Of a stretch of DNA of 64,000 nt, positions 3,346 to 64,000 are shown one piece after another. The notes beneath the pieces are model-generated. The model saw nothing but the letters and a program-made list of their open reading frames with translations. It made no database searches and was not told the DNA's origin. The DNA comes from a virus: IMG/VR virus record IMGVR_UViG_3300035704_000007, positions 2,946 through 66,945 of that record; one strand, written 5' to 3'. Both the position numbers and the translations under genes were made by a program. Position 1 is the stretch's first letter; each line of letters opens with the position of its first letter.

Positions 3346-4115
3346 AGCGCCACTCCCTCCCCCAAAAACCTCCGCAGGCGCCGGATGGCCTGTCGGTGAT
3401 ACTGGTGCGAGCGCGACTCCGAGCGGTCCAGCCGGCCGGCAATGGCTTTCAGCGTCAGCCCCTCCTCGTAATAGGCCCGAATGACCTCCCGCTCCGTCGC
3501 CGGCAGCCAGCGCACCGCCTGCCAGAGGATCTCGCTCTCGTTGTCCAAGAGGGCGATCGCGTCGGGGCCGGGTGCCGGATCGGCCACCTGCTCGCCGACC
3601 CGCAAGGGGTCGAAGTCGGCATCCGGGTCGGCCTGGTTGATGAGCGCGTCGAGCGAGACCACGCTGCGACCCTTCGCCTGCCGCTGCAAAGCCTGGAGCG
3701 CCTCCAGGTCGAGCCCGAGGTGGGCGGCCGTCTCTGCGTCCTCGGGTTCCCTCCCGAGCGCGTGTACGAGGCTGTCAGCGGCTTGAGCGAGCACTTTCTG
3801 CTTCGTCCGCACCGAGCGGGGCGTCCAATCCTCCGCCCGTAAATATTCGAGCATCGCGCCCCGGATCATCGAGATACAAAAACTGCTGAACTTGACGCCC
3901 CGCGCCGGCTCGAACCTGTCGACCGCCCGGACGACGGCGATCATCCCTTCGGTCTGCAGGTCCTCCGGGTCGATGCGGACCGGCACGCGCGGGATCACGC
4001 GCGGGATCGTCAGGCGGACCAGGGGCAGGTGCGCCTCGATCAGCGTGGTGCGCGCCTGCTGGCAGTCGTGCGTTTTCAGGGCGTCCCAGAGGGGAGCGGT
4101 GTCAGCCGGTGTCAT
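3342..4115 (-). CDS. RNA polymerase sigma factor, FliA/WhiG (sigma-28)-like
   Basis: EDLQTEGMIAVVRAVDRFEPARGVKFSSF..IRGAMLEYLRAEDWTPRSVR; region 4 YYEEGLTLKAIA..SESR. Confidence 0.9.
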   Translation of the reverse strand: MTPADTAPLWDALKTHDCQQARTTLIEAHLPLVRLTIPRVIPRVPVRIDPEDLQTEGMIAVVRAVDRFEPARGVKFSSFCISMIRGAMLEYLRAEDWTPRSVRTKQKVLAQAADSLVHALGREPEDAETAAHLGLDLEALQALQRQAKGRSVVSLDALINQADPDADFDPLRVGEQVADPAPGPDAIALLDNESEILWQAVRWLPATEREVIRAYYEEGLTLKAIAGRLDRSESRSHQYHRQAIRRLRRFLGEGVAL

Positions 4116-9187: not shown

Positions 9188-9769
9188 TCATGGCTTCACC
9201 AGATCGACGCTGAACCGGCCGAAGGGTCCGCTCTTGCTCGGTCGAAAGTCGCCGACGCCGATAATGGCTCCCGCCAGGTCGAAGACCTGTTGGATCATCT
9301 CGGGGTTCAAGAGCATTGGTTCATATTGAAACTCAACCGTCGTCGCCCACTGCGGCAGCTTCGGACGGGATCGGCTGATCCCCTGGCGCTGCACGACGGC
9401 GCGGCGGATATCGATCTCATACTCCCGCAGCGGGTGCCCGGTTTCCGGGTGATATAACGGCGCTGACTCCTCAATGGCGAACAGGGCTGCCGAGAGAATT
9501 AGCCGGGCAGCCTTCTTCTCGATCTTCTGCCCCGCCGCTGCCGCCAGGATCGCCGAGCGGAAATGCGTTGTCGGCAGATACAGTTGACCCGAGGGCAGCC
9601 GGTAGCAGCCTGCTTCCGCCTCCTCTTCCGGCGATGGAATGACCTTCGGACCGATGCCGGTCTCTTTCCGCCGCGCCATTCCGGCGGGGTTGTGCATCAA
9701 GAGCCCCGCGCCGTGAACGCCCGTCACCTCGAACCGCACTAACCGCAGATCCCCATAATGACTCGCCAT
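9188..9769 (-). CDS. Stand-alone Cas7/RAMP-like RNA-binding protein
   Basis: N-terminal strand VRFEVTG..LLMHN; YLPTTHFRSAI helix; RSRP..W; C-terminal Gly-rich loop AGAIIGVGDFRPSKSGPFGRFSV; RBS AAGGAG. Fold is inferred from motifs. Confidence 0.7.
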   Translation of the reverse strand: MASHYGDLRLVRFEVTGVHGAGLLMHNPAGMARRKETGIGPKVIPSPEEEAEAGCYRLPSGQLYLPTTHFRSAILAAAAGQKIEKKAARLILSAALFAIEESAPLYHPETGHPLREYEIDIRRAVVQRQGISRSRPKLPQWATTVEFQYEPMLLNPEMIQQVFDLAGAIIGVGDFRPSKSGPFGRFSVDLVKP

Positions 9770-9795
9770 TGTTCACTCCTTGACTGGCTGAGAAG

Positions 9796-10371
9796 AAAAA
9801 GACCCTCACCTGACCTCGCCATGCCTCACCGCACCTCGCCATGCCGTAACCGACCTCGCCTGACCTCGCCTCACCAGACCCGGCCCCACCAGATGAAAGC
9901 GTTAGAAAGACCCTCACCCTGCCTCACCTTGCCGCGCCAGGCCCAGCCTCACCGGGCCTCGCCATGCCCGACCGAACCACACCTGACTAGAGCAAACCGG
10001 CGGCGGCCTCACCTCACCCTGCCTGGCCACACCCCGCCGGGCCTAACCGCACCCAACCAAAGCAAGAAGCATGGAAAAAGAACCTCACCCTGCCTTGCCT
10101 CACCCGACCTGACCCGGCCCGACCAGGCAACGCCCCACCTGACCAGACCTCGCCCCGCCAGGCCTCACCCCACCGCGAGAAGTCGCTTGAAAGACCCTTA
10201 CCTCACCGGACCAGACCGTACCCGGACTCACCATGCCACGCCTTGCCTTGCCCCGCCGTACCACAACAAAGCGGGAAAAAAGACCCTCACCCTACCGCGC
10301 CCCACCTGACCGCACCCGGCCATACCTGACCGCGCCTTGCCAGACCTCAGCTGGCCATCCCAAACCATGCC
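9796..10371 (-). ncRNA. Array of six GGY-NN pentamer tracts (putative guide RNAs)
   Basis: About 95 units with strict 5-nt period; five tracts end in GGT(G/A)AGG(G/T)TCTTT; lies between the ParB-like and RAMP-like genes. Confidence 0.75.
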
Positions 10372-10375
10372 TTTA

Positions 10376-11068
10376 TCAAACTGCCGGTTCGAGCCGCTCG
10401 TCCAGCACCCGGTTGAGCACCTCGCGCAGCGTCTCCAGGCGGCCGACGAGCGCCTCGTTCCGCCAGTCCAGCAGATCCCCGCTGATCGCGTTCAGGACCT
10501 GATTGACGGAGAAGAGGACGGACATTCCGGAAGCCCGGTCGTTCGCTCGAAACTGCTCGCCGGTCAGTTCCCGGCCCGCCAGCGATGCCGCCGTGAACTT
10601 CAGGGGGACCAGGGCGGCCTCCGGTCCAATCGCCGTGCGCGTAAGGATGAGGCGCTCGACCGTCTCTACGGTGATTTGCAGCCGCGCCGCGGTTTCGATA
10701 TCGGGGATGCCCAACTGCCGCGCCAGCGCGATGCAGCGCACCCGGTCATAGGTCGCCAGCACCTGCCCATGCCGCGAGTTCAGCAGCATCGCGTCGGCAA
10801 ACAGCGCCGCGTCGGAAGGATAGTCGCGCCACTCCACGGAAATCAGCGCCTCCTCGCCCGCTTCCCGCAGTTCCGCCGCGATCCGATGGAACCCGTCCAC
10901 CACCCGGTTCGTGTGCCGCTGTACGACGACAGGCGGCAGATCGATACCGGCTCGTCGCGCTTCCGCTAGTTGCCGAACGTGCGTATCGTCGATCCCATGG
11001 CGCGGATAGATCGATTCATCCAACACCAGATCCACCGCCCTGACCCGCTCGCCGTGTTCTCGTTTCAT
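10376..11068 (-). CDS. ParB/Srx N-terminal domain protein
   Basis: LDESIYPRH..LPPVVV..VVDGFHRIAA; RBS AAGGAG. Confidence 0.8.
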   Translation of the reverse strand: MKREHGERVRAVDLVLDESIYPRHGIDDTHVRQLAEARRAGIDLPPVVVQRHTNRVVDGFHRIAAELREAGEEALISVEWRDYPSDAALFADAMLLNSRHGQVLATYDRVRCIALARQLGIPDIETAARLQITVETVERLILTRTAIGPEAALVPLKFTAASLAGRELTGEQFRANDRASGMSVLFSVNQVLNAISGDLLDWRNEALVGRLETLREVLNRVLDERLEPAV

Positions 11069-16097: not shown

Positions 16098-16916
16098 TTA
16101 GTTCTCTGCCTTCCGTCTGCGGTCCTGTATCTGCCGGTCCCGGTCAACATCCCAGGCGTCCAGATCCCGCTTGTAGACGAGCCGTGCGGCCTTCTCATCG
16201 CCGGCCCTCAGGAAAGGCAGGTGCCCGGCCTCGATGCGCTGATAGACTGCCTGGACGCTGACGCCCTTATATTTAGCGGCATTGCGGATCGAGAATAGCT
16301 CTTCGTTCTTCAACTCGCGTGGCTTCTTCGCTGCTGGCATTCGCTTCCGTTCACTCACTGGCTTGGGTTCACTGATCCTGACCTGTTTAGGCTCTCTGAT
16401 CTTGACTTGATTGCCCGTCGCTAACATGTTGCGCCTCCTTGTCTCCAACCCCTTAGCGGTCGCGGCAGGAGACCTGGGCCGCCGCATTTTGGCTTTTGAC
16501 TCCTCCGTATGCTTCTTTCCTTTTCGGAATGCGGACAGCTTTGCTTTAGCTTGTTCCGTCAGGGTTTGTCCCTGCCGCGCGGCGGCGATCCTCGCCCGCG
16601 TCTCATCAGCGTGCATGAAACCCAGCGACCCCTCTCCTCCTGCTGTCAGATTGGTCAGCGGGGCTCCTCTATCGCGATAATGTTTGATCCAAAACTGCTC
16701 TCTCTGCAGAACCTCATCTGTCTCTTCGAGAATGGCCAGCACCGGTTCTAAGCCCAATCCAAACAGTACGCGTAGCCAGCATGATAGGTGCAGCCTGCTG
16801 CCCCGTGCGGCGGCGTGATAATGGTCTGAAAGCCGCTCATGGCCTCCTCTGTTGGTTTGTCCGATGTACCGAGTATCGCCGGTCCTGGGGTCGAGTAGAG
16901 CATAGACGATCCCCAT
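16098..16916 (-). CDS. GIY-YIG endonuclease with NUMOD3 motifs and C-terminal excisionase-like HTH
   Basis: GIVYAL..RYIGQT..R..EQFWI..N; KHTEESKAKM; LFSIRNAAKYKGVSVQAVYQRI. Confidence 0.85.
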   Translation of the reverse strand: MGIVYALLDPRTGDTRYIGQTNRGGHERLSDHYHAAARGSRLHLSCWLRVLFGLGLEPVLAILEETDEVLQREQFWIKHYRDRGAPLTNLTAGGEGSLGFMHADETRARIAAARQGQTLTEQAKAKLSAFRKGKKHTEESKAKMRRPRSPAATAKGLETRRRNMLATGNQVKIREPKQVRISEPKPVSERKRMPAAKKPRELKNEELFSIRNAAKYKGVSVQAVYQRIEAGHLPFLRAGDEKAARLVYKRDLDAWDVDRDRQIQDRRRKAEN

Positions 16917-24793: not shown

Positions 24794-27700
24794 CTAGCCG
24801 ACGAAGAAAGCGGGATAGCCGGCGCTCAGTGCTCCGGTCTGGGTAATGATGAAGCGAACGGAAGACTGCGGACTACCGAAGTCGGTGGTCTGCGCGCTGG
24901 CGAGATAGACCTGACTGGGGCTGGTCGGCGTGAAAGTGCGGAGCACCCGCTCGGCCGTTCCCCCGCTGACGTAGGCCGGCAAGAGATAGAGCGTGCTCAC
25001 GTCGGACAAGGAAAAACTGTTGCTCAGTGCATTGCTCACCGTGCCGATCAGGCCATTGACGCCCACGAGACCGATTACCCCCGTCAGATAGACCTTCTGC
25101 CCGTTGCTGAACCCGTGCGCGGTCGAGTTGAAGGTGGGAACGGACGCCGTCATGATGGCGGTGATCGTTTTCGGCGCTCCCGAGAGCACGGACACGGCAT
25201 ACGCTTCCGTGGTCTCGCCGAGCGGTACCGTCGCGCCGGAAGGCAGCCCCGCCCCCGTCCGCGAGCGCCTGGTCCACGTTAAGGTGATGTCGCCGGCAAG
25301 CCGCGTGGCCGCCAAGTGGCACGGTGCATACGGCTTCGCCTCCTCGCCGCGGATCGACAGGGGCACGGGGGTTGCCGCCGCGATGGCGGTTCCCGAGGTG
25401 ACCGCTTTGAGGATCACCTGCGAGGAGAAGGCACCGCCGCCGAGCACTTCGCGCACCGCCGAGGCGTCCAACAAAGCGAACCGCTCGCCGACACGATGCT
25501 CAGACCATCTCCCGTCCGTGCCGCGCCGGCCGCGCAGGAGCCGCGAGAGGCGATAGGTAGTGCCGGTCAACGGCGTGACGGTGGCGAACTGGATCACCTC
25601 ATCCCCGAGGATGGCCAGGTTCGCCCCCGCAGTCACGTCGGCATCGGAGGTCGAAGTGGGCGCGTCGCCGGCGATCAATGAAATATCGACTGTGTTCGTG
25701 GTGTCGAACGGCCCCGGCTCCGTTCCGGCGGCGAGCGCCGAGAGCGCCGTGCCGATGGCTGGCCCGCTGTTGATGCTCCCGATCAACTGGTAGCTGGCGC
25801 CGGCGTCGAGGCTGAGATAGAGCGCGGCCCCCGGCCAGTACCCGGAGGCGCCGGCATTGGCGACGGCATAGAAGCCGATGGAAGCGGCGTCGGCATCTCT
25901 CAAGGCGTTGCCGCTCCATGCCACCAGCGTGGTGGTCAGCGTGTCCATCACCGCGGCCGGCGGCGTCGTCAGCGCCCCACCCGCAGCGCTCTGCACCAAC
26001 ACGGCGGCGTCGTCCAGCACCCCGGTAATCCGGATCGGTCCCGGCAGCGCCAGGTCCATCTGCTGGATCCGCACCGACAGGCTGCCGGCGGGGGTTGGCA
26101 GTAGGACCGTATCACCAGGAGCGAGATAGAGGTAGCGCGGCCCCAGTACGATTTGCGGCGTCTCGCGCTCCAGCCAGCGCCGATAGAGGATCTTCTCCAC
26201 GATCTGCCGCGCGTGGTCGTCGCTCAAAACGAGCGGCACTGTCACTGTCACCACCTGCTGGAGCCAGGTCTTCGTGACCCGGCTCGCTCCCTGCATCGAT
26301 TGCAGGTAGTTGCGCGCCGGCAGCCCGTAGTACGTGAGTTCAGCGCGGAACGGCAAGTCGAGCTCCGAGAGGCGCGGAATGGTCAAGGTCAGCGGCGGGT
26401 CGCTCTCCGGCCCGTCCACCAACCGCGCCGCCAGGTCTCCCGCCGGGATCGTCGCCACACTGCCCGCGCCCCGCTTCAAGGCGAAAATCTTGCCGTCGAC
26501 CTCCGTCAGGTAGGTATCGTACGCCTGGAGCAGCGGGTCGATCACGGAGCGGGCGTCAGAACGGTCGGCGATAATGAAGCCGTCCACCTTATCCACCGCT
26601 GCGCTGACATCGAACTGCCCGGCCGTCAGGCCCGCTTGCGTGAACAGGTCGGTCAGGATGGTGGAGAGAGCCACCTGGGTCGCCACCAGCAGCCCGGCCG
26701 AGAAATCATCGATCCGGTTGGTCGAGGCGCAGGAGAAGCCGTAGGAGGTCGCTGTCTGGTTGAAACTGTCGCTGGCCGTGCAGACCTGAAGGCCGTTGAC
26801 ATACCCCGTCACGGTCGCCCCGTTGAACGTGAGCTTCAGCACGTCTCCGGCGAGGGCCGGCTGCGTGGAGGTCGTGACAATGGTAAACGCGCCGGCGACC
26901 CGCTTGCCCAATTCGTAATTGCTCGAGTCGAAGGCCGATTGCCCGAACCACCAGTAATTGTCCTTGTCCGAGAGCCGCCCCAGTACGAAGCCGGCGCCGA
27001 GCCCGGAGCCGGTCCCGGTCGTCACGGTGAGCTGCGCGAAGGTGGCATCGCTGACGCTGCAATCGATCCAGGTCGGATGGTCATTGCTGCCGGTCGTGTT
27101 CGCCTGGTTACTGACGACCTGCCCCGCCACGGTGCCGAACTGCCAGGTCTGCCCGCTGTCCGCCGTGATCAGGGTGCCATCCGCCCGGTTGAAGCTGTCG
27201 GAGGCCAGCAGGCCGCTGTCCGCTTTCACCACGTCGAAGCTCAGGGGGTTGGGAAAGGCGTTGTTGAAATCGACCAGGGGCAGGTCCTGAAAGACGACGT
27301 AGGCATCTCCTCGGTAGGCCGGCGTGGTCGCTCCCGCGGAAGCGACGATCAGCGGGTCCGGCATCTGCACCTCGTCGCCGAGGTAGATGCGGATCGTATA
27401 GGAGCTTTGCGGGCTGGCGTTGACATCGTAGATCACCCGGTCCCCGGCCCGGATCTTGCTCACCTGGGTGATCGGTCCCCGGCACAACAAGCAAGCAAAC
27501 GACATGGTGAAGCTCGTGGTCGGGGGTGCGAAATCGGTGAAGTTGGCGATGTCGAAAGGCACCTGCGTCTTGGTCGTGATCGGGTTGCGCGGGTCGGCCC
27601 AGATGACGGTCCCATTTAACCTCATTGACCCCCAGACCTGGCTTATCGGCGTCCCGTAGGCCGAGCCCGTAATTCGCAAATCCGGCAACCTGGCTTGGTT

Positions 27701-27826
27701 GGGCTGCGGCTTATTAGCCGCGTCAAGCGCACCGCCTACAGCCACCCCGACGCTGTACCCCAGGAGCGGATTCCCAAAAGCCAGACCGATGGCCCCACCA
27801 ACCAAGCCTAAGGCTATCGTAGCCAC
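24794..27826 (-). CDS. Tail tip/host-specificity protein (GTA-like central fibre)
   Basis: SAYGTPISQVWGSMRLNGTVIWA; PAYRGDAYVVF; LSRLLRGRRGT; TWTRRSR. Confidence 0.85.
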   Translation of the reverse strand: MATIALGLVGGAIGLAFGNPLLGYSVGVAVGGALDAANKPQPNQARLPDLRITGSAYGTPISQVWGSMRLNGTVIWADPRNPITTKTQVPFDIANFTDFAPPTTSFTMSFACLLCRGPITQVSKIRAGDRVIYDVNASPQSSYTIRIYLGDEVQMPDPLIVASAGATTPAYRGDAYVVFQDLPLVDFNNAFPNPLSFDVVKADSGLLASDSFNRADGTLITADSGQTWQFGTVAGQVVSNQANTTGSNDHPTWIDCSVSDATFAQLTVTTGTGSGLGAGFVLGRLSDKDNYWWFGQSAFDSSNYELGKRVAGAFTIVTTSTQPALAGDVLKLTFNGATVTGYVNGLQVCTASDSFNQTATSYGFSCASTNRIDDFSAGLLVATQVALSTILTDLFTQAGLTAGQFDVSAAVDKVDGFIIADRSDARSVIDPLLQAYDTYLTEVDGKIFALKRGAGSVATIPAGDLAARLVDGPESDPPLTLTIPRLSELDLPFRAELTYYGLPARNYLQSMQGASRVTKTWLQQVVTVTVPLVLSDDHARQIVEKILYRRWLERETPQIVLGPRYLYLAPGDTVLLPTPAGSLSVRIQQMDLALPGPIRITGVLDDAAVLVQSAAGGALTTPPAAVMDTLTTTLVAWSGNALRDADAASIGFYAVANAGASGYWPGAALYLSLDAGASYQLIGSINSGPAIGTALSALAAGTEPGPFDTTNTVDISLIAGDAPTSTSDADVTAGANLAILGDEVIQFATVTPLTGTTYRLSRLLRGRRGTDGRWSEHRVGERFALLDASAVREVLGGGAFSSQVILKAVTSGTAIAAATPVPLSIRGEEAKPYAPCHLAATRLAGDITLTWTRRSRTGAGLPSGATVPLGETTEAYAVSVLSGAPKTITAIMTASVPTFNSTAHGFSNGQKVYLTGVIGLVGVNGLIGTVSNALSNSFSLSDVSTLYLLPAYVSGGTAERVLRTFTPTSPSQVYLASAQTTDFGSPQSSVRFIITQTGALSAGYPAFFVG

Positions 27827-29299: not shown

Positions 29300-29793
29300 C
29301 TCCGGCCCCTGGCGCGCCGCACCGCCTGCCCCACCGCCGGCGCGGAGCGCCCCAGCGCCCGCGCGCACTCCGCCTGCGTCTCCTGCCGGTAGGCCAACCG
29401 CCGCAGAACCTGTCGCTGCAGCGGCGACAGCCCCGCCAGCAGCGCCTCTGCCTCCAGCCGGTCCAAGAGTGCCGCTTCAAACGACGGCGCGGCCGGCTCG
29501 AACGGCTCGGCCTCGTCGCCATCCTCCCTGCGACTCCCGATCTGCGAGAACGGGATCGCCGCCGGCCGCGCCTCGCCCTGCCGGTACGCCTGCCCGAGCC
29601 AGCGGCGGAACCATTCCGTGGGCGCCCGCTCGGCGGCGAGCCACGCGCCGTGCAGGCCCGCGCGCTGGTAGCCACGCCACGCCTCCAGGTGGGCTTGGGA
29701 TCTGATATCCTGCCATTCCGGGTGAGCACTCCAGCGCGGGCCGAGACAGGCCAGCACCAGGTTCATGAGACGCGGCCCCGGATCCGCAGACAT
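29296..29793 (-). CDS. ECF-like sigma factor (region 4 clear, region 2 divergent)
   Basis: WQDIRSQAHLEAWR; LAGLSPLQRQVL..ETQAECARALGRSAPAV. Confidence 0.55.
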   Translation of the reverse strand: MSADPGPRLMNLVLACLGPRWSAHPEWQDIRSQAHLEAWRGYQRAGLHGAWLAAERAPTEWFRRWLGQAYRQGEARPAAIPFSQIGSRREDGDEAEPFEPAAPSFEAALLDRLEAEALLAGLSPLQRQVLRRLAYRQETQAECARALGRSAPAVGQAVRRARGRR

Positions 29794-37385: not shown

Positions 37386-37892
37386 TTATGGGGGCCATGT
37401 TTCAGCCCGGATTATCCGACAAATAGATGAGACTGTTACGCCGTAGCGAACGGCTAACTGGCCCCGTGATGCATCGCCAGCCGCATGGCATCGGCGTATT
37501 TCAGCGGCCAATTCATGGTTGAGCTTGCTTGTCGGTGTATGACGCAGCCTGTCTCCTTTGGCCTGGCGCCCCTTACGATTTCTGTCCTGGTTGTTCTGGG
37601 CTCGGGTGCCCAAGAAGAGATGATCCGGCCGACAGCAAAGACGATTGTCGCACGTGTGGCACACGTCGAGATGAGCAGGAAGAAAAGAATGTGTGAGTTT
37701 CCATACAACCCGGCTCGCCTTTGTGCCCCGCTTTCCCGCCCACGTTGTCAGCCCGTAACCGCCGCTCGTACCTGCCGTCCAGTTCCAGCAGCCGCCGCCG
37801 AAAGTAACGTCAATATGACGCCAGAAACGCTGTTCCTCGCTGGCTGTCCGCCGCCGATAGGGTCGTTTGACGCCTGGATTTCCCTTTGGCAT
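37386..37892 (-). CDS. HNH homing endonuclease
   Basis: RFW..CWNWT..GYG..VCHTCDNRLCCRPDHLFLGT..NNQD. Confidence 0.9.
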   Translation of the reverse strand: MPKGNPGVKRPYRRRTASEEQRFWRHIDVTFGGGCWNWTAGTSGGYGLTTWAGKRGTKASRVVWKLTHSFLPAHLDVCHTCDNRLCCRPDHLFLGTRAQNNQDRNRKGRQAKGDRLRHTPTSKLNHELAAEIRRCHAAGDASRGQLAVRYGVTVSSICRIIRAETWPP

Positions 37893-51807: not shown

Positions 51808-52041
51808 TCAAGGAGCGGGCTCTTCCCTGCGCCGTCCCGTTCCCGCGCAATCCGGGCAGAGGATCGGCTTGACGATGCCCAGGCGCACGGCGACAGCGGA
51901 GGCTTCCGGCAGCGCTTCCCAGACACGCCACGGCTCACCGGCCTCGCTATTGGCGATCCGGCCGCAGCCGTCGCAGCGCGGGCAGGGTTCGCGAATGACG
52001 GCATCGCCGAAACCCGTTTCGGCGTTGATGCTGTGTTTCAT
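51808..52041 (-). CDS. Small DnaJ-type Zn-finger protein
   Basis: CPRCDGCG..CPDCAGTG. Confidence 0.55.
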   Translation of the reverse strand: MKHSINAETGFGDAVIREPCPRCDGCGRIANSEAGEPWRVWEALPEASAVAVRLGIVKPILCPDCAGTGRRREEPAP

Positions 52042-52259
52042 CCCTCGAGTACCTCCTCGACTTTGGCCTCCGGCAGTGACAGCAGCCGGCTGCAGACCGG
52101 GCAGCGCTTCAGGAGCGCGGCCGGCGGAGCAGGCGGGCCGCTCTGCACGCCCACCAGCGAGGCGCGGCCGTGGATGTCGCTGACGATCCAGCCGTTGCCG
52201 GTCCAGGACCAACGGCAGCCACACCCGCAAGCGCCCGAGGGCAAGAGATGTTCAGGCAT
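52038..52259 (-). CDS. Small Cys-rich protein
   Basis: CGCGC..CPVC; GAGGAG RBS. Confidence 0.5.
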   Translation of the reverse strand: MPEHLLPSGACGCGCRWSWTGNGWIVSDIHGRASLVGVQSGPPAPPAALLKRCPVCSRLLSLPEAKVEEVLEG

Positions 52260-52377
52260 TGCTATTTCTCCTCACCCATCAGCGGCGATCCATCGCGCGG
52301 AACCCACGCCAATTCATTGGCAGTGGAGGAGCGCGATACCTGCTTGTCTGAAGGATTGGTGCTATAATAATGGTGGT

Positions 52378-53514
52378 ATGACGAAAACACTGGTGGTCTC
52401 CTTGCGGCCTACTGAGCAGCAGTTACCGGATTTATTCCTGGCAATGGAAGCGTTCAACGCTGCCTGTAATTGCGTCTCAGCGATTGCCTGGGAGACGCAG
52501 GAGTTCAATAACTATCGGCTCCGTCGGCTCGCCTATCGAACGATCCGCGAGCAGTTTGGACTGCCGGCACAACTGGCGCAGCAGGCCATCGCTAAAGTCG
52601 CCAATGCCTACAAGGTCGCGAAGCATCGGCGCGCCGAGTTCGAGCCGCATGGCGCTGTCACCTATGACTGCCGCGTGTTCCGGCTGTTGGGTGTTTCTGC
52701 CGTCTCCATGACGCTGCTCTCCGGTCGCGCTAAAATCGCTCTCTCGCTGGGCGGCTATCAGGCAGAGCGTCTGCGAGGGGCGAAGGTGGGTGAGGTCGAT
52801 CTGTGCTATCTTCCCGAGAAGCATCGTTTCCGGCTGCACCTCTCGCTCAAAACCGAGACGCCGCCGGTCGCCGAGACGGAAGAGTTTCTCGGCATCGACA
52901 TGGGCATCAAGAACATCGCCGCCGACAGCGACGGCACCCTCTACGCGGGCGGCAAGCTGCGCCGGCTGCGAAAGGTGGCCCGGCGGGTGCGCCGCCGTCT
53001 GCAAAAGCTCGGCACTCGCGGCGCTCGTCGCCTGCTTGTTAAACGACGCCGCAAGGAACAGCGGCGGGTTGCCCATATCAATCACTGCATCTCCAAACAG
53101 ATCGTTCAGGCTGCCAAAGGCACCGGGCGTGGGGTCGCGGTCGAAGACCTGACCCACATCCACGACCGGATAACGGTTCGCCGGGCAGACCGGGCTGAGC
53201 ATTCGGGCTGGGCTTTCCACCAACTGCGCTCCTTTATCGAATACAAGTGTGTCAACGCCGGCATTGCCTGCATCGCCGTCGATCCCCGGAACACCTCCCG
53301 CACCTGCCCCCGCTGTGGGTGCGTCGATAAGCGGAACCGCCCATCCCAGTCCGAATTCCGCTGTGTCAAATGTGGAGAGACCGGTCATGCGGATCTCTTC
53401 GCCGCGCGAGAAATTGCGCTCAGGGGCCGCTCGCTAAGCCGGCCAAACTGCTCGGAGGGGAATGCCGCTGAAACCGGCTCCGCTGTCCTTCAGGGCAAAG
53501 CCACACCCCTTTAG
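52378..53514 (+). CDS. tnpB: TnpB RNA-guided endonuclease (IS200/IS605 family, no tnpA)
   Basis: RuvC triad GIDMG / VEDL / HADLFAA; Zn ribbon CPRCG..CVKCG. Confidence 0.92.
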   Translation: MTKTLVVSLRPTEQQLPDLFLAMEAFNAACNCVSAIAWETQEFNNYRLRRLAYRTIREQFGLPAQLAQQAIAKVANAYKVAKHRRAEFEPHGAVTYDCRVFRLLGVSAVSMTLLSGRAKIALSLGGYQAERLRGAKVGEVDLCYLPEKHRFRLHLSLKTETPPVAETEEFLGIDMGIKNIAADSDGTLYAGGKLRRLRKVARRVRRRLQKLGTRGARRLLVKRRRKEQRRVAHINHCISKQIVQAAKGTGRGVAVEDLTHIHDRITVRRADRAEHSGWAFHQLRSFIEYKCVNAGIACIAVDPRNTSRTCPRCGCVDKRNRPSQSEFRCVKCGETGHADLFAAREIALRGRSLSRPNCSEGNAAETGSAVLQGKATPL

Positions 53515-53531
53515 GGGCTGTGGTCGCTTAC
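53421..53531 (+). ncRNA. TnpB omegaRNA scaffold/right end
   Basis: TAAGC..CAAAGCCACACCCCTTTAGGGGCTGTGGTCGCTTAC overlapping the tnpB 3' end. Confidence 0.7.
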
Positions 53532-53792
53532 AATCTTGATCGCCATCTCTTGTATATCAATGCCTATCCGCTGTCCGGCTTTCCTGGACAATTCCTCTGT
53601 GAGGAGTTGACGCGGCGTCTTCGGTTTCGCTTTAGCGATCTCCCACTGCTCGGTCAGCAACTCACCCCACGCCTTCAGCCCCTTGTCCCACCAGTCAGGC
53701 GGATCGATCCAGGGACAGTCGCAGGGGATCGTCGCGGTCTCGCCATACTGCTTGAGCCGGATCGAAGCGATAGACTCCGTGGCTTCAGGCAT
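53511..53792 (-). CDS. Hypothetical protein, 3' end probably interrupted by the TnpB element
   Basis: GAGGAG RBS; last codons run into the element's right end. Confidence 0.55.
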   Translation of the reverse strand: MPEATESIASIRLKQYGETATIPCDCPWIDPPDWWDKGLKAWGELLTEQWEIAKAKPKTPRQLLTEELSRKAGQRIGIDIQEMAIKIVSDHSP

Positions 53793-54068
53793 CGCTACTC
53801 CTCAATCTCGCCGCCGGCCGTCTGTTTGAAAATACGAATGCGGTCTACCAGCGCCATTGTCAGCCTCCGTGCTTCCGGCGCCGCTCCTGCTCCGCCGCCG
53901 TGAACTTTAGCCTTGGATCGCGCCGCCTGGCCTTGACGGTCGGCTGCTGCGTGTCCGAGCCGCAGGATGGGCAAAAAGCTGGGATCGTCATCGCTCCCGG
54001 CGGCGCGAGGTTCTTGCCACAAACGGGACAGGTGGGCGCTTCGGTAAAGCTCTTGTCATCGACCGGCA

Positions 54069-54377
54069 TCAACCCTTCCCCACTTTCGCCGCCGCGCGGA
54101 GGAAGAGGCGCAGCGCGTCGCGCTTGCGGCGGCCCGGCGCATCATTGTAGAGCCCGAGCGTCACGTACGGCGCCGGTAGGCCACTCTCCACGAGGCGGCG
54201 CAGCGCGATCCACGTCGCGTCGTCCTGCAACCGGGATCGCTCCAAGAACGCCCGTTTCAGAGCGGTGATGGCGCACTCCGCATGTCCTTTCGCCGGCAAC
54301 AGGCCGTGGAACCAGGGCGCTCCATCCAGCAGTGCGTAGGCCAGCGCCAGCACATCGAGCGTTTGCGCTTCGTTCAT
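54069..54377 (-). CDS. Hypothetical protein
   Basis: GGAGGAG RBS; CAITAL..YNDAPGR..D motif. Confidence 0.6.
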   Translation of the reverse strand: MNEAQTLDVLALAYALLDGAPWFHGLLPAKGHAECAITALKRAFLERSRLQDDATWIALRRLVESGLPAPYVTLGLYNDAPGRRKRDALRLFLRAAAKVGKG

Positions 54378-54608
54378 GGTCGTTTCTCCTCCAGTGGCCA
54401 GCCCACTGTCTTCCTCGTCTCCTCCACGGACCGGACCTGCGCCGCCATCAGCCAGCGCAAGAGCGGCTCGCGGAACGCCGTGATGATGAAGCCGCCCTGG
54501 CCGTCCTCGTGCGCCAGGGAAAGGCCGTGCATCCGGCAAAGGCTGTCCAGATCCGAGAGAAAGCAGGCCGCTTGTTCTGGCGTCGGTTGGCTCAAGGAAG
54601 TTTTCCCC

Positions 54609-55358
54609 TTAATACGGATACCGGCTCGTCGCCGCCTCGGAGCCGTCCGGCAGCGAGGCGATCGCGTAGTCGCCGAAGACGGCCGGCGCTTCCCGCTGCA
54701 GCTCGCGCAGGAGGGCAATCGCCAGAGCGCGGATCTCGCGGTCGGCGTGCTCGCTGCCCCGCATGTGGATAAACCAGCGCCAGGCCCGGAAGTTGCCGGT
54801 CACGACAATCTTCGTCTCGGTGGCGTTCGGCATCACACTCCGCGCCGCCTGCCGGGCCAGCTTGCGCCGCAGAGTCCGGTCCTCTACGTCCGCGTACCGT
54901 GCCGTGAGCTTCTCCAAAAGCTTATCGTACGCCGCCTGACACGTCTGCACTGTCTCCAGGAACAGCGCGTGCAGCTCCGGGCCCGCCGCGATCGGCTCCG
55001 GCTCGATGAAGCTGGCGTCGGTCTCGGGGACATAGCGCTGGCTCTGCTGGGAAAAACTCAAATGCCTGTGCCTGACCAATTCGTGGGTTAGCGAGCGGGA
55101 GACGCCGGAGATGAAGAAGGTCGCGTTGGCGTGCTCGATCACGCTTAGGTGTCCGTGGTCGAGCATGTTGGCAATGTATTCGGCGTTGGTCCGCCCCGCC
55201 GGATTGGACCAGCTCTGATAGCACGTCCGGCCGGCGAACTCGATCAGGAGCTGGCTCTGAATCTCCGTGTCGCTGGTCCACTGCGCCGCGACAGCGGGCG
55301 GCGCGGCAAACCGGGTGAGCGCCACGAGGGCAACACGCGGGGCGGTGATGATCTCCAT
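54609..55358 (-). CDS. thyX: Flavin-dependent thymidylate synthase
   Basis: [10 protein letters not shown]; GHLSVIEH; [18 protein letters not shown]; QAARSVMPN. Confidence 0.95.
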
Positions 55359-55367
55359 CGTTTCTCC

Positions 55368-56974
55368 TTAACCGAGCGAGCAGCCATTCCGCTCCCGGAG
55401 CCAGTAGTCGCCCGGCCGCAGCACCACGCGATCCAGGCTGTCCGCCAGCGTGAACACCGCTTCGATCTCGCGGTCGGCCAGCTTCGAGGCCGCTTCCACG
55501 GTCACCGGCAGATCGCCGTGAATGGCACGCAGGCTCTCCAGGCGGCGGCAGAGGTCGCTGATGGTCATGGAATTGCCGCCCCCTCGCTGGATGGCCAGCG
55601 CCCGGTCCAGCGGCTGACCCACGGGTTGTGCCCCGCGCAGTCGTCGGTCAGCCGCTGCCCGCCGCAGACCGAGCAGCGCTCCACGTCGCAGCCGACCTCG
55701 TGCGGCTCGCCCACGGGCACGTTGCAGTCAGGACAGCGCGGCATCACCGGCTGCGGCTCGGCGGCGTAAAGCAGCAGGGCGCTCATGTTCGCCTCGGTGC
55801 AGTGCGAGACCGCCATGAACAGGTGCAGGGCCACCCGGGCCCACTCCTGCCGCTGGATGGCCAGGGCGGCGTCTAGGAGCGCCTGCTGAGCGTGGGCGTG
55901 ATACCGCTGCAGCGTATCGAGGGCTTCGCTCAAGGCCCTGACTTCGCTTTCTCGCCGCGATGAATGACCACCTCGCCCGCCGATTCGCCAGCGCCGCGCG
56001 GTGAACGCCATTCAAAGACACCCAACAGCCGCTCGAACGCCGCATCCAGGGTGAGAAACACCTCCGTCCACCCGTCGGTGCTCGATGTCTCGGTGACAAT
56101 ATAGCCATTGTTCGCTTGCTCGATCTCCAGCCGGCGGTTCAAGGCGCTTTGCCCATCAGCGCCACCCCTCCAACCGGATCTTCTGCCGCGTCGGTTGCCA
56201 CGTCGCCCCGCCGTCGGTCGAATACTCCGAACACTCCTTCCGCGCTCCCCGCGCCGGGCCGCCGGCGATGGCCCGCGCCAGTCCCTGATACGCCTGCCAC
56301 TCCTCGGCGGTGAGCGTGCCCGGTATCTCGGGAGAAGGCGGCGGCTCCGGCTTCGGACGCCGGCCAAAGAAGAGGCTCATCCCTTGTTCCTCGTTTCCTT
56401 CTGCCAGTGCAGGAGCCGGGCCAGCTCAGCCTGTTCCGCGCGCCCGAGGAAGATGACGAACTTCTGGCCTTCGCGCGTGAATCGCAGGTGAATGCCTGCT
56501 TCGCCTGAGGGGGCGGTGGCCGCATAGAGATCGAGAGTCCAATCTTTCTCTGCACCCACCTTCATTCTGCAGCCCTCGGCTCATCGTCGGCAACGACGAT
56601 GAGCCAATCCACCAGGTAGCGGCAGAGCGCCAGCCAGTCGTCCCGCTCGGCCGCCGTCCAGCTCTCTCCGGGACCGGGGAGCAGTATCATCAGCCCCGCG
56701 AAGAAGTGACGCTGCGCCTGGTTCGTGATGACCCGGGTCTTCGCAAAGCGGCTCATCCCTCACCCCTGGGCTCGCACCAGCGCTCATCCACCGCCAGCAC
56801 CGCCTCCCGGTCGCGGGCATCGGTATCGGCTACCCGCGCCCGCGTGCGGATCAGCCGGCAGAGTTCCTCGGCCTCGGCTTCGGTGATCACCACCGCGCCG
56901 ACCAGATTCCAGAGGCGGCGCTTCACCTGGGCAAAAAGCTCGGCGTGAATCTGAGCGTAGAGGTCCCCCGCCAT
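55368..56974 (-). other. Cluster of about seven small coupled hypothetical ORFs
   Basis: ORFs ending at 55368, 55565, 55930, 56156, 56377, 56562 and 56753 with stop/start overlaps. Confidence 0.55.
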
Positions 56975-60989: not shown

Positions 60990-61178
60990 TCACCGATTTG
61001 CCTCGTCAGCAATGCAGCGCCTCTGATGCTCAAGCATGCACGCTTCGCCCGCTTTACCGCGATGACAGATCATCGCCCTACAGATAGGGCAGCGGCGTCG
61101 CTGACGCATAATCGCTGGCCGGCGACAAACCACACAGAGAGGGATAAGGTTGCTCGTGTTGCCTCGCCGCTCTTTCAT
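60990..61178 (-). CDS. Small Cys-rich ORF between the terminase halves
   Basis: CVVC..CPIC..CH..C..H; ATGA-coupled to the ATPase part. Confidence 0.55.
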   Translation of the reverse strand: MKERRGNTSNLIPLCVVCRRPAIMRQRRRCPICRAMICHRGKAGEACMLEHQRRCIADEANR

Positions 61179-62014
61179 GCCGGCCCTGCTTCCACGATCC
61201 GAAACCACTCCCTGCGGAACAGTTTCCCCTCCGGCCGCACGTCCCAATCCCCCTCCAGCAGTTGGCGGCGCGTCACCGGGTCGAGCTGATTGAGCGCCTG
61301 CGTATACTCCTCGGCGTCCAGATACGGGTTGTCCTGCAAGCGCGCCGGCACGAAGACCCGCTCCGGGTCGTCGTGCGGCTCGATGAACCGCTGCTTCACC
61401 CACTCGGCGCCGGGGTTGGTCGCCGCGCGCATCCGAATGGGGATCTTCGAGCCACCCGAGCGCCGGATGCGGCTGAACAGGTAGCGATACGAGCTTTCAC
61501 TGAAGTGGGATAACTCATCGAAGCAAACGAGCGAAAACTCGGCGCCTTGATAGCGATACTTGTCATTCTCCGTCTGCAGGTAGCCGAAGCTGATCGTCGC
61601 TCCCGACGGGAAGCGCCAGGTCTTCTCGGCGTCGTGCCACTTCGCCGCGGTCGGCCGCAGCCATTCGCCGGCCCGGTCCATCAACGCCCCCGGCAGCGCC
61701 AGATCCTGATAGGTGCGCCGGAAGAGGATCGCGGTGTAACCGGGCACCTCGACATACTGCAAAGCGGCCATCAGAAGGCAGTCCGACTTGCCACCGCCAG
61801 CCGCACCGCCAAACAAGGCTTCCCTTGCTTGCACGTCAAGGAACTGCGCCTGCCGGGTCGTCGGGGTGTGCGGGCAGAACGGGATCACTCCCGCCGCCTT
61901 CGCCTTCGCTTTCGGGTTCTGCTTCGTCTTCTCCGCTAACAGCCGCTCGATCAAGAGCAGCCGGAAGTCGTCGGAGTAGACGGTCGCGCTCGGCGCGGAG
62001 TTGGTCCTCATCAT
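61175..62014 (-). CDS. Terminase large subunit, N-terminal ATPase part (start uncertain)
   Basis: FGGAAGGGKS; CFDE; ATNPG; DNPYL; LLEGDW. Confidence 0.9.
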   Translation of the reverse strand: MMRTNSAPSATVYSDDFRLLLIERLLAEKTKQNPKAKAKAAGVIPFCPHTPTTRQAQFLDVQAREALFGGAAGGGKSDCLLMAALQYVEVPGYTAILFRRTYQDLALPGALMDRAGEWLRPTAAKWHDAEKTWRFPSGATISFGYLQTENDKYRYQGAEFSLVCFDELSHFSESSYRYLFSRIRRSGGSKIPIRMRAATNPGAEWVKQRFIEPHDDPERVFVPARLQDNPYLDAEEYTQALNQLDPVTRRQLLEGDWDVRPEGKLFRREWFRIVEAGPA

Positions 62015-62396
62015 AGTTCATCAGTTCCAGCACGAAGCCTGGTAATCCTTCAGCCGAGCGTTCGAGAGCCACGCCTTCTTTGATCGCGGCAATGGCCTCG
62101 CGCCCCTCTTCCACTTCGTGCTTGACGAAGTATTCCACGCCCCGCCGCCGCAGCAGCTCGCCGGCCTTTGCCTGCTCGGCCAGGATGGAAGCCCGCCGCT
62201 GAATGGCCTGCTTCTCTGCTTGCTTCGCCGCTTCCTGGTCGCGGGCATCGGCGCGGGCGTGCCATTTGAACTCGCTGATCCACACCGCGACGGCTTGTTC
62301 CGAAACGGACAAGCGTTCAGCAACAGTCCGTCTACTGCGATCCGACGAGTACCAGATTTCGAACGCATCGATATGGCGCTGGCGTTCCCGCTTCAC
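61836..62396 (-). CDS. Terminase small subunit
   Basis: N-terminal HTH with W..EFKW..RA; immediately upstream of terL. Confidence 0.65.
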   Translation of the reverse strand: MKRERQRHIDAFEIWYSSDRSRRTVAERLSVSEQAVAVWISEFKWHARADARDQEAAKQAEKQAIQRRASILAEQAKAGELLRRRGVEYFVKHEVEEGREAIAAIKEGVALERSAEGLPGFVLELMNYDEDQLRAERDRLLRRLPAALDRAAVSGEDEAEPESEGEGGGSDPVLPAHPDDPAGAVP

Positions 62397-62446: not shown

Positions 62447-62656
62447 ATGGAAACGACAAGCCTGGAAGCCCTGATTGCCCGCACGAACGAGACCCGCGAG
62501 CGGATGCGCCGCTTGCAGGTGCGTCACGCCGAGGGCCTCTGCTCTTACGAAGAGATGGTAGACGCGGCGAAAGCGTTCTGCGGCGCCTTCGATGCCTACC
62601 ATAAGGCCAAGTACGGCAAGGGCAAAAAGCTAGATTGGCGTGCCGTCATCCGCTGA
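62447..62656 (+). CDS. Small hypothetical protein
   Basis: Antisense ORF between terS and the methyltransferase. Confidence 0.55.
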   Translation: METTSLEALIARTNETRERMRRLQVRHAEGLCSYEEMVDAAKAFCGAFDAYHKAKYGKGKKLDWRAVIR

Positions 62657-64000
62657 TTCTTCCTCCCCCACGTCCCCGAACTGGCAGTCCGCCGCGATCT
62701 CGGGGATACGCTGCGGATCGCCCCGGTAGAACACGACGACCGACTGGTGCGTCTTCCCTAGCTTGCGATAGCTGCCGAATTGCTTACCCACCCGGATCGG
62801 CAGGGAGCCGACGGCAGTCACCAACACCGCATCGTTATAGAGCCGCATCCCGGCATCCTGAAAGGCGGCGACAGTATCGGCCACGAAGTTGCGATAGAAC
62901 CCTTTCGGGTCGCGCACGTCGCCCACCACGAAGCAGGCGAAGCGGTTCTCCTTCAGCCGCGCCACGGAGGCGGCAATGATCTCGCGATAGGCGGCCAGGA
63001 AAGCCGGATAGGCCAGCGTCGAGAGGTCGCGGGGATCGTCGGAGTAGACTTCCAGGTCCGCATAGGGCGGGCAGGAAAACACGAAATCGAACTCGCCGCC
63101 CACGAGCGGCACACAGTCGCGGCTATCGCCCACGATCCACTCGGGGACCACCCCGATCCGTTCCGCCTGCAGCCGGTTCGCGGCAATCTGCCCCTCGGAA
63201 AGATCGATGCCCACGTAAGAGCGCCCCAGACAGCCGGCCACGATGCCGCGCACGCTGCCCCCCGCGAACGGATCGAGGACCCGCCCCCGCTCGGGACAAA
63301 ACCAGCGGTACGCCAATTCACAGAGAACCGGATCGAAGATGGAGGTGCCCGAGGTCTGCGTCGTTTCCTGTTCGCCATTCCGCACCCGGTACGTGTCAAA
63401 CTCGGCTTGACCTGGGGTCAAGCCGAGTTTCTCCCCGACGACATGCTCCCCGCGCATCAAATCCTGGCCGCTGTTTCGGCCAGGATTTGATGCCATCTTT
63501 CGCCCTTTGCCGTCGCCGCGTACCGTGTGCCCGTCTTCGCCCAAGCGCGCGGCCTGCCGCGCGCTGCCGCCGGGAGAGGCACTGCGATAATGGCTTAGCG
63601 CCTGCTCGGATTCTCCGAGCAGGCCGTTATCACTACCATGTCGTCCAACGAGGGGCGCGGCATAATCCGCCATCTGCGCCCGTGAGTTCTTCAGGTGGCC
63701 TGCTGCGGCCATCAAAGTCGCAGCCTCATCCTTGGTGAGCGGTCGCCCGGCCTCGGCTTCCAGCCGGCGTTTCTGGGCGTAGAAATCAATCGTACTCGTT
63801 GTCTCCGGGTGGGCCTGCTCCAGGTTCACAATCCCCCGCCCTAACTCGCTCTCGATGCCCATCGCCAGCCAGGCCCGCTTCCGCTCCTGCCAATAGCCCT
63901 GCCGGGCGTCTAGCACCGAGAAGGGCGGCACGCCGAACCGTTCCGCTAACGTCACCTTGGCAGCTTCCTGATCGGGCGTGTTGCCGCTCCCCGGCTCCCC
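62630..64000 (-). CDS. DNA amino-methyltransferase (N4C/N6A type), 5' partial
   Basis: LAERFGVPPFSVLDARQGYWQ; TSIFDPVLCE; LDPFAGGSVRG; SCPPYADLE. Confidence 0.85.
   Translation of the reverse strand, partial: GEPGSGNTPDQEAAKVTLAERFGVPPFSVLDARQGYWQERKRAWLAMGIESELGRGIVNLEQAHPETTSTIDFYAQKRRLEAEAGRPLTKDEAATLMAAAGHLKNSRAQMADYAAPLVGRHGSDNGLLGESEQALSHYRSASPGGSARQAARLGEDGHTVRGDGKGRKMASNPGRNSGQDLMRGEHVVGEKLGLTPGQAEFDTYRVRNGEQETTQTSGTSIFDPVLCELAYRWFCPERGRVLDPFAGGSVRGIVAGCLGRSYVGIDLSEGQIAANRLQAERIGVVPEWIVGDSRDCVPLVGGEFDFVFSCPPYADLEVYSDDPRDLSTLAYPAFLAAYREIIAASVARLKENRFACFVVGDVRDPKGFYRNFVADTVAAFQDAGMRLYNDAVLVTAVGSLPIRVGKQFGSYRKLGKTHQSVVVFYRGDPQRIPEIAADCQFGDVGEEESADDGTPI

Follow-up and report, generated by a model that had tools for sequence, protein, structure and literature searches.

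Among the RNA-guided systems that bind DNA, VIPR (Viral Interference Programmable Repeat) is a very small one; it was described only recently and has been proposed to be older than CRISPR. It consists of Vipr, a stand-alone RAMP protein, an accessory gene named vap, and vrRNAs composed of 9-16 GGY/NN repeats with a constant 3' tail (10.64898/2026.04.26.720920). Target choice lies with the NN bases of the vrRNA, which address double-stranded DNA and pass over one base for every two that are read. Evidence for this "1 nt skip rule" came from pangenome searches, from binding in vitro and from repression of GFP, and the skipped bases fall mostly at codon position 3 (10.64898/2026.04.26.720920). 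Small-RNA sequencing identified the arrays as the RNAs bound by Vipr; the natural targets are rival phages, prophages and satellites, and no self-targets were found in the described systems (10.64898/2026.04.26.720920). The structural basis is given in 10.64898/2026.04.26.720927 and the biology of the systems in 10.64898/2026.10.15.759431. The available text of the latter reports the same skip for a satellite recombinase target, and describes solo vrRNAs by which satellites and VIPR-null phages redirect the Vipr of a rival. According to the available text of 10.64898/2026.10.21.760802, VIPR arrays have also been recovered by their 5-nt periodicity. The systems closest to the one described here are those of Escherichia phage SUSP1 and of a Pseudomonas fulva prophage (called type II; PDB 36pp).

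Here, a locus is described that very probably represents a complete VIPR system of an uncultured soil siphovirus, the components (vap, six vrRNA genes and vipr) all being encoded on the minus strand, with the function of the vrRNA genes assigned by homology. It is an additional member of an already published family, and the wobble-skip mechanism of that family is known. The original prediction had recovered the wobble-skipping code from the sequence alone, without tools.

Organization of the locus

All coordinates refer to the window, that is, the whole stretch of 64,000 nucleotides that was analysed. The features of the locus, in the direction of the minus strand, are the following.

10376..11068, minus strand: vap candidate, 230 aa, with a ParB/Srx-like N-terminal domain and a helix-turn-helix; conserved neighbour
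10263..10371, minus strand: putative vrRNA F; 17 pentamers at 10371-10287, the first five partly degenerate; tail GGGTCTTTTTT... at 10286-10263
10175..10262, minus strand: putative vrRNA E; 13 pentamers at 10262-10198, unit 8 degenerate (GTCCG); tail GGGTCTTTC...
10059..10174, minus strand: putative vrRNA D; 18 pentamers at 10174-10085, unit 10 degenerate (TGCCT); tail GGTTCTTTTT...
9984..10058, minus strand: putative vrRNA C; 10 pentamers at 10058-10009; atypical tail GGCCGCCGCCGGTTT...
9891..9983, minus strand: putative vrRNA B; 14 perfect pentamers at 9983-9914; tail GGGTCTTTC...
9782..9890, minus strand: putative vrRNA A; 17 pentamers at 9890-9806, unit 9 degenerate (GTTAC); tail GGGTCTTTTT...
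9188..9769, minus strand: vipr, encoding the 193-aa Vipr, a stand-alone Cas7-like RAMP; AAGGAG at 9781-9776 ahead of the ATG at 9769

Repeat arrays

On the minus strand, positions 10371-9806 were found to hold six tandem arrays of GGY-NN pentamers with 89 units in total (5' to 3': F 17, E 13, D 18, C 10, B 14 and A 17). The vipr gene, which is encoded on the array strand, starts 37 nt after the final pentamer of array A. The first G was present in 88 of the 89 units, the second G in 86, and C or T occupied the third position in 88. Compared with this conserved GGY, positions 4 and 5 are hypervariable and all 16 dinucleotides occur there. An independent parse returned the six NN strings of the original prediction letter for letter. 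They are mutually different, as it had stated, since no pair has more than four NN in common at any offset. Its observation that GA is enriched and that TA occurs once was reproduced as well, with GA in 21/89 units and TA in 1/89. When the last two, semi-constant units of each array were set aside, GA accounted for 14 of 77 units, compared with an expectation of 9.2% derived from codon positions 1-2 in the ORFs of the same phage (binomial P 0.010). Six of those 14 units belong to guide A.

A search for six consecutive GGYNN units gave 38 matches in the window, every one of them on the minus strand of the locus, compared with 0 matches in 100 dinucleotide-preserving shuffles. In the 66,945-bp virus record, seven consecutive units matched 30 times on the array strand and never on the opposite one, and the reversed control pattern gave no match in the whole record. 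Outside the locus a single run of four GGYNN units was observed (29563-29582).

Units that break the GGY motif occur in arrays A (GTTAC, 9846-9850), D (TGCCT, 10125-10129), E (GTCCG, 10223-10227) and F (GCTGA, 10347-10351), all on the minus strand; F also contains GGGAT. The degenerate unit is approximately central in A, D and E; in F, units 3 and 5 of 17 are affected. Such a unit may mark a break in the Vipr filament or the point at which a long array is split into two guides.

The 3' ends of the arrays are largely constant. In five of the six, a terminal GGTGA is followed by GGGTCTTT or GGTTCTTT and then by approximately 15-20 CU-rich bases, the constant end being GGTGA-GG(G/T)TCTTT. Array C terminates in GGTGA GGTGA GGCCGCC and the common tail is missing; it may be a guide that has degenerated, or may belong to B as a 5' extension. 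Among 179 arrays of related loci, the last two NN were A-rich (A 42-61% per position). It had been proposed that the last one or two NN belong to the constant tail, and both this composition and the GGTGA end of the five arrays fit the proposal. In the minimum-energy folds of F, E, D and B (4/6 units) the CU-rich spacer is paired to the final repeats, and the tail folds of the six units did not differ significantly from those of shuffled sequences (z from -2.05 to +1.32). No Rfam family was matched in the window, CRISPR repeat families included. Neither a sigma-70-like promoter nor an intrinsic terminator was found within the array block, so that the arrays are likely co-transcribed with vap and vipr and then processed.

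Vipr protein and its linkage to the arrays

For the 193-aa Vipr, 112 relatives were found in the protein collection, none of them named. A profile of 62 of these 112 homologs retrieved PDB entry 36pp_D, the "SUSP1 Vipr protein", with an E value of 2.9e-19, residues 2-183 being aligned with 1-190. The single-sequence search against SUSP1 Vipr gave an E value of 0.007 over 62 residues, and no family was matched among the Pfam, NCBIfam and PADLOC models. The nearest genomic relatives of the protein were found in two MAGs, one of the Burkholderiales (47%) and one of the Xanthobacteraceae (40%).

In SUSP1 Vipr, residues H17, R138, D177, W178 and R179 hold G1, G2 and Y3 of the repeat, as described in the available text of 10.64898/2026.04.26.720927. 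They align with H26, R135, D174, F175 and R176 of the present protein. Four of the five contact residues are thus identical to those of SUSP1, and the change from W to F is conservative. In the family alignment (A1), R135 and R176 do not vary, and D174 is conserved to 90% or more.

The association of arrays and vipr was evaluated from both sides. Stretches of nine consecutive GGYNN units were estimated at 3,500 in the viral collection, with at least 137 loci among the matches listed, these loci being counted with redundancy and not de-duplicated. Many of the 137 carry several arrays with locus-specific constant ends, in some cases followed by hairpins. An ORF matching the Vipr profile was present in 77 of these 137 listed loci; for the 80 that have 3-kb flanks, the count is 61. 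The ORF shares the strand of the array in 75 of the 77. Among 83 loci found by Vipr similarity alone, at least nine GGYNN units were located on the vipr strand in 56 and on the opposite strand in 1. The membership of the locus in the VIPR family is well supported.

Of the 80 listed pattern loci with 3-kb flanks, 19 were devoid of a Vipr-profile ORF. One of them (L047) is a plain GGCCC repeat, and the remaining ones could be solo vrRNAs or be accompanied by divergent Vipr genes.

Vipr homologs were also detected in 32 records of isolate phages (25 of Mycobacterium, 5 of Gordonia, 1 of Pseudomonas and 1 other). Unannotated VIPR loci are present in the cultured phages LESphi2 (Pseudomonas; OQ594955.1, 2055-2359 of locus L229) and Zizzle (Mycobacterium; MZ274306.1, 2019-2251 of locus L230). 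In both, the GGYNN arrays are located just upstream of the Vipr homolog and beside cI/cro or immunity-repressor genes. The arrays of Zizzle underlie the annotated hypothetical CDSs 52-54, which indicates that gene callers probably mis-annotate vrRNA arrays as proteins.

Proposed mode of action

If the locus works as its homologs in SUSP1 and P. fulva do, the 570-nt stretch would be transcribed and would yield six guide RNAs of about 75-120 nt. Vipr protomers would polymerise along each RNA, one per pentamer, with G1, G2 and Y3 accommodated in Vipr pockets and the two variable bases presented. The resulting filament is expected to bind double-stranded DNA by reading NNxNNx..., every third target base being flipped out. 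In coding targets the flipped base would mostly be the wobble position, so that synonymous mutations would leave the target bound. Binding of the filament would silence transcription of a rival phage, prophage or satellite. What the analysis of the locus itself demonstrates is the anatomy of the repeats, a Vipr homolog that has the RAMP fold and retains the GGY contacts, the conserved ParB-like neighbour and the lack of self-targets. All of the steps above, from expression and processing of the RNAs, through filament formation, the one-base skip and silencing, to rival mobile elements as targets, are taken from the published systems.

Codon reading and target searches

According to the original prediction, the guides match coding DNA while skipping the wobble base, and would thereby resist synonymous escape. 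This reading is supported by the membership of the locus in the VIPR family and by the published mechanism, not by a decoded target. The check that had been suggested for it, a search for gapped matches, was carried out with skips of 0-3 on the phage's own genome and on sets of 1.04 Mb and 1.55 Mb; no excess over shuffled guides was observed in these searches, which have low power.

In a test that requires no target, the NN dinucleotides were scored against codon-position models derived from the ORFs of the same DNA. For the present locus (83 NN), "sense positions 1-2" scored -318.5 bits and "antisense positions 2-3" -316.0 bits, and both exceeded the genome dinucleotide background (-329.7 bits) and the other four phases. 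These two scores are nearly equal, so that the locus alone does not decide the codon phase. The test was also applied to 232 guides from 112 non-redundant loci, with 2,162 NN. Here a skip of codon position 3 scored +248 bits, compared with +151 for position 1 and -242 for position 2, on gene models that are crude (stop-to-stop ORFs) and whose bias is equal for all three phases. The advantage of position 3 over position 1 was 97 bits (bootstrap 95% 40-156), and position 3 was the best phase in 118 of the 232 guides, versus 89 and 25. This result supports the wobble-skip code of the VIPR family independently of target searches.

Exact scans of the viral collection with a one-base skip gave 0 matches for guides A (NN1-16), D (NN2-16), B (NN2-12) and F (NN6-15). 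The same was found when the degenerate unit was treated as a wildcard, for E (NN1-7 and 9-11), A (NN2-8 and 10-15) and D (NN4-9 and 11-15). In the metagenome collection, an exact one-base-skip scan with guide E (NN2-7 and 9-13) also gave 0 matches. The exact collection scans thus covered guides A, B, D, E and F with the one-base skip. They tolerate no mismatch and the papers accept at least 80% NN identity, which makes them weak tests. With up to three mismatches allowed, guide A matched in 0 of 2 genomes and in 0 of 401 genomes sampled from one class, a small set that was not targeted to an identified host.

Within the phage's own genome, the best NN match at skips of 0-3 was 62-75%, equal to that of shuffled guides, and no self-target was present at 80% identity or above. 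When 251 guides were compared with the 1.04-Mb set at skips of 0-3, no real match of at least 0.9 was obtained at any skip, and shuffled guides gave 0-1. For 266 guides and the 1.55-Mb set, at a threshold of 0.85 or above, real guides gave 4, 2, 3 and 3 matches at skips 0, 1, 2 and 3, and shuffled guides 2, 1, 3 and 3. The six guides of this locus reached 64-75% at best in the latter scan. The local databases are far too small for targets to be expected, and the negative results consequently carry little power. Published searches, as far as the available text of 10.64898/2026.10.15.759431 and that of 10.64898/2026.04.26.720920 describe them, used at least 80% identity on whole pangenomes or all of IMG/VR.

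These outcomes bear on a different reading of the locus, in which the arrays are true vrRNA genes that do not serve as silencers of this phage, being instead decoys or hijackers like the solo vrRNAs of satellites, or partly decayed copies. Solo vrRNAs that redirect the Vipr of a rival do exist in satellites and VIPR-null phages (available text of 10.64898/2026.10.15.759431), the target searches for the six guides gave none, array C is devoid of the common tail, and four arrays contain degenerate units. However, the arrays are flanked on the same strand by a conserved partner gene and by an intact vipr in which all five GGY-contact residues are aligned. The layout is that of complete systems, and seven related loci share the vap-arrays-vipr order. 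We consider decoys or decayed copies very unlikely and a complete VIPR system is preferred.

Accessory gene

The ORF of the vap candidate ends five bases before array F. Of the 83 loci with Vipr relatives, 54 have a homolog on the vipr strand; it follows vipr in 47 of them and precedes it, like the present ORF, in 7. The order vap-arrays-vipr of the present locus was observed in seven related loci. One related metagenome locus with this order (L159, 971-1418) has seven arrays only 8-9 bases apart (GGAATTGN), and its guide block is far more compact than the six-guide block described here.

The protein sequence was compared with several collections. It matched the PHROG ParB-like partition protein with an E value of 2.3e-10, and the profile of its family matched PDB ParB chains with an E value of 1.7e-6. 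Pfam ParB_N was matched by 5 of 25 family members, and a DGFHR motif is conserved in the family. A tblastn search against isolate phages gave no match. The AF2 model (pLDDT 93.2) resembles CTP-bound ParB, Noc and KorB. Structure matches included M. xanthus ParB (7bnr_A, E 8.4e-6) and KorB (8qa9_B, TM 0.47/0.51), and the rmsd with C. crescentus ParB (6t1f_D) was 3.8 A over 146 columns. We take the ORF at 10376-11068 to be the vap gene of the clade and treat it as a candidate.

The ParB-like fold allows a speculation on the function of the partner. On plasmid RK2, KorB acts in long-range silencing. A sliding clamp of the ParB type might be loaded at the RNA-programmed Vipr filament, spread outward over the DNA beyond the footprint of about 50 bp and turn a point block into long-range silencing of the rival genome; alternatively, the partner might mark the rival DNA for a nuclease. 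Both ideas are rather unlikely. If true, RNA-guided recognition would be coupled to a nucleotide-switch clamp, a pairing that the available main text of the VIPR preprints does not describe. The term "ParB" itself does not occur in the main text of 10.64898/2026.04.26.720920 or 10.64898/2026.10.15.759431.

The same neighbour raises the question of whether the pentamers could be DNA sites, as iterons or a centromere for the ParB-like protein, and not RNA genes. The arrays adjoin a gene with a ParB/Noc/KorB-like fold, and short tandem repeats act as centromeres in some plasmids. ParB sites, however, are palindromic, and the repeats described here are strictly strand-asymmetric and co-oriented with vipr (56 versus 1 of 83 loci). 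Moreover, arrays accompany Vipr also where a ParB-like gene was not detected: 54 of the 83 loci have such a gene, and some of the others contain at least nine units. Finally, only two of the five positions vary, as in the published RNA guides. A role as DNA sites is therefore highly improbable, and the arrays are better read as vrRNA genes.

Two ORFs run across the arrays, one of 183 aa (9758-10309, plus strand) and one of 148 aa (9471-9917, minus strand), and both are probably artefacts of the repeat. That the stretch is protein-coding through these open frames, or is a structural DNA or RNA element such as an R-loop origin or two-tier G-quadruplexes, which a GG every 5 nt could in principle form, is the least credible reading and extremely improbable: no reading frame stays constant over repeats with a 5-nt period, hundreds of loci have the same arrays linked to Vipr genes, and published small-RNA sequencing revealed Vipr-bound RNAs (10.64898/2026.04.26.720920).

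In the light of the VIPR literature and of the linkage described above, several first ideas on the repeats had been dropped: a TRAP-like protein-binding RNA, a CsrA sponge, primase sites, a G-quadruplex or R-loop origin and ParB centromere repeats.

Genomic context and host

The record represents a complete virus genome, which has terminal repeats and genes for the tape-measure, tail, major head, portal and terminase proteins. Further small ORFs are found beyond the locus on the minus strand, together with genes for an XRE-type regulator, an excisionase-like HTH protein, an AAA_25 replication protein and a sigma factor. The VIPR locus is situated in an early or regulatory region. Among public runs, the locus was found in one soil-metagenome DNA run only, which may be its source.

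A 1010-aa tail protein (24794-27826, minus strand) displays about 30% identity to the "gene transfer agent host specificity protein" type of Caulobacter, Brevundimonas and Rhodobacter phages. The host is probably an alphaproteobacterium, as hinted by this resemblance to the host-specificity protein of alphaproteobacterial phages.

Other elements were observed in the window. The region 52033-55769 (plus strand) contains a transposase ORF (PHROG transposase, E 1e-41) and four plus-strand ORFs amid the minus-strand head and packaging module, and looks like an insertion sequence in the phage genome. The ORF of the terminase large subunit (61175-62368, minus strand) is short, with 279 aa that cover positions 151-425 of a profile of 642; the gene is possibly split or interrupted. 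A second ParB-like element was found at 62630-63955 (minus strand), where a ParB-like nuclease N-terminus is fused to a DNA methyltransferase in a protein of 441 aa. Free-standing endonuclease genes of the GIY-YIG/NUMOD3 homing and HNH types are located at 16098-16916 and 37386-37892, respectively (both minus strand).

Comparison with known systems

The VIPR mechanism is already in print, and the value of the locus therefore lies in cataloguing. It contributes a complete system from an uncultured soil phage, in which the six guides form a single block and the partner is ParB-like. The connection with a ParB/KorB-like accessory protein and the target-free test of NN composition (232 guides) are possibly useful beyond this.

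Like the systems of SUSP1 and P. fulva, the locus encodes a stand-alone Cas7-like Vipr of about 20 kDa, in which the GGY-contact residues are aligned (four of five identical, W replaced by F). Co-oriented tandem GGY-NN guide genes with a constant 3' end and one conserved accessory gene are also common to them, as are the phage-borne state, the location in an early or regulatory region and the lack of self-targets. In contrast to these relatives, to which its sequence similarity is only distant (single sequence E 0.007), the present locus has its six guides in one block between vap and vipr. The tails are short and CU-rich, start with GGGUCUUU and have no supported pseudoknot, whereas the published SUSP1 tail has one. 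Arrays A, D and F contain 17-18 units, compared with the 9-16 stated in the VIPR paper (10.64898/2026.04.26.720920). The partner displays a ParB/Srx-plus-HTH fold, and "ParB" is a term absent from the main text of two VIPR papers.

With the CTP-dependent DNA clamps ParB, Noc and KorB, the partner model has in common the N-terminal domain and the HTH, although the sequence similarity is weak. No ParA-like ORF was found among the 16 neighbours scanned.

For class 1 CRISPR-Cas, the backbones compared were Csm3/Cas7 of type III-A, the type VII Cas7 and the Cas7-11 domains. No cas or adaptation genes were found in the 23 kb around the locus, where the neighbours are regulators, replication genes and unknowns, and the PADLOC models gave no match with Vipr, the vap candidate or a 58-aa ORF. 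The period of the present arrays is 5 nt with three guide bases hidden, compared with 6 nt and one hidden base in CRISPR. In addition, the target is read at two of every three bases, and there is no repeat-spacer array.

A more general resemblance was found with TIGR-Tas and CRISPR arrays, in which conserved and variable segments also alternate in an RNA that programs a protein (available text of 10.64898/2026.10.21.760802). Those arrays have periods of 18 nt and 60-79 nt and contiguous guides, whereas the period described here is 5 nt and the guide is non-contiguous.
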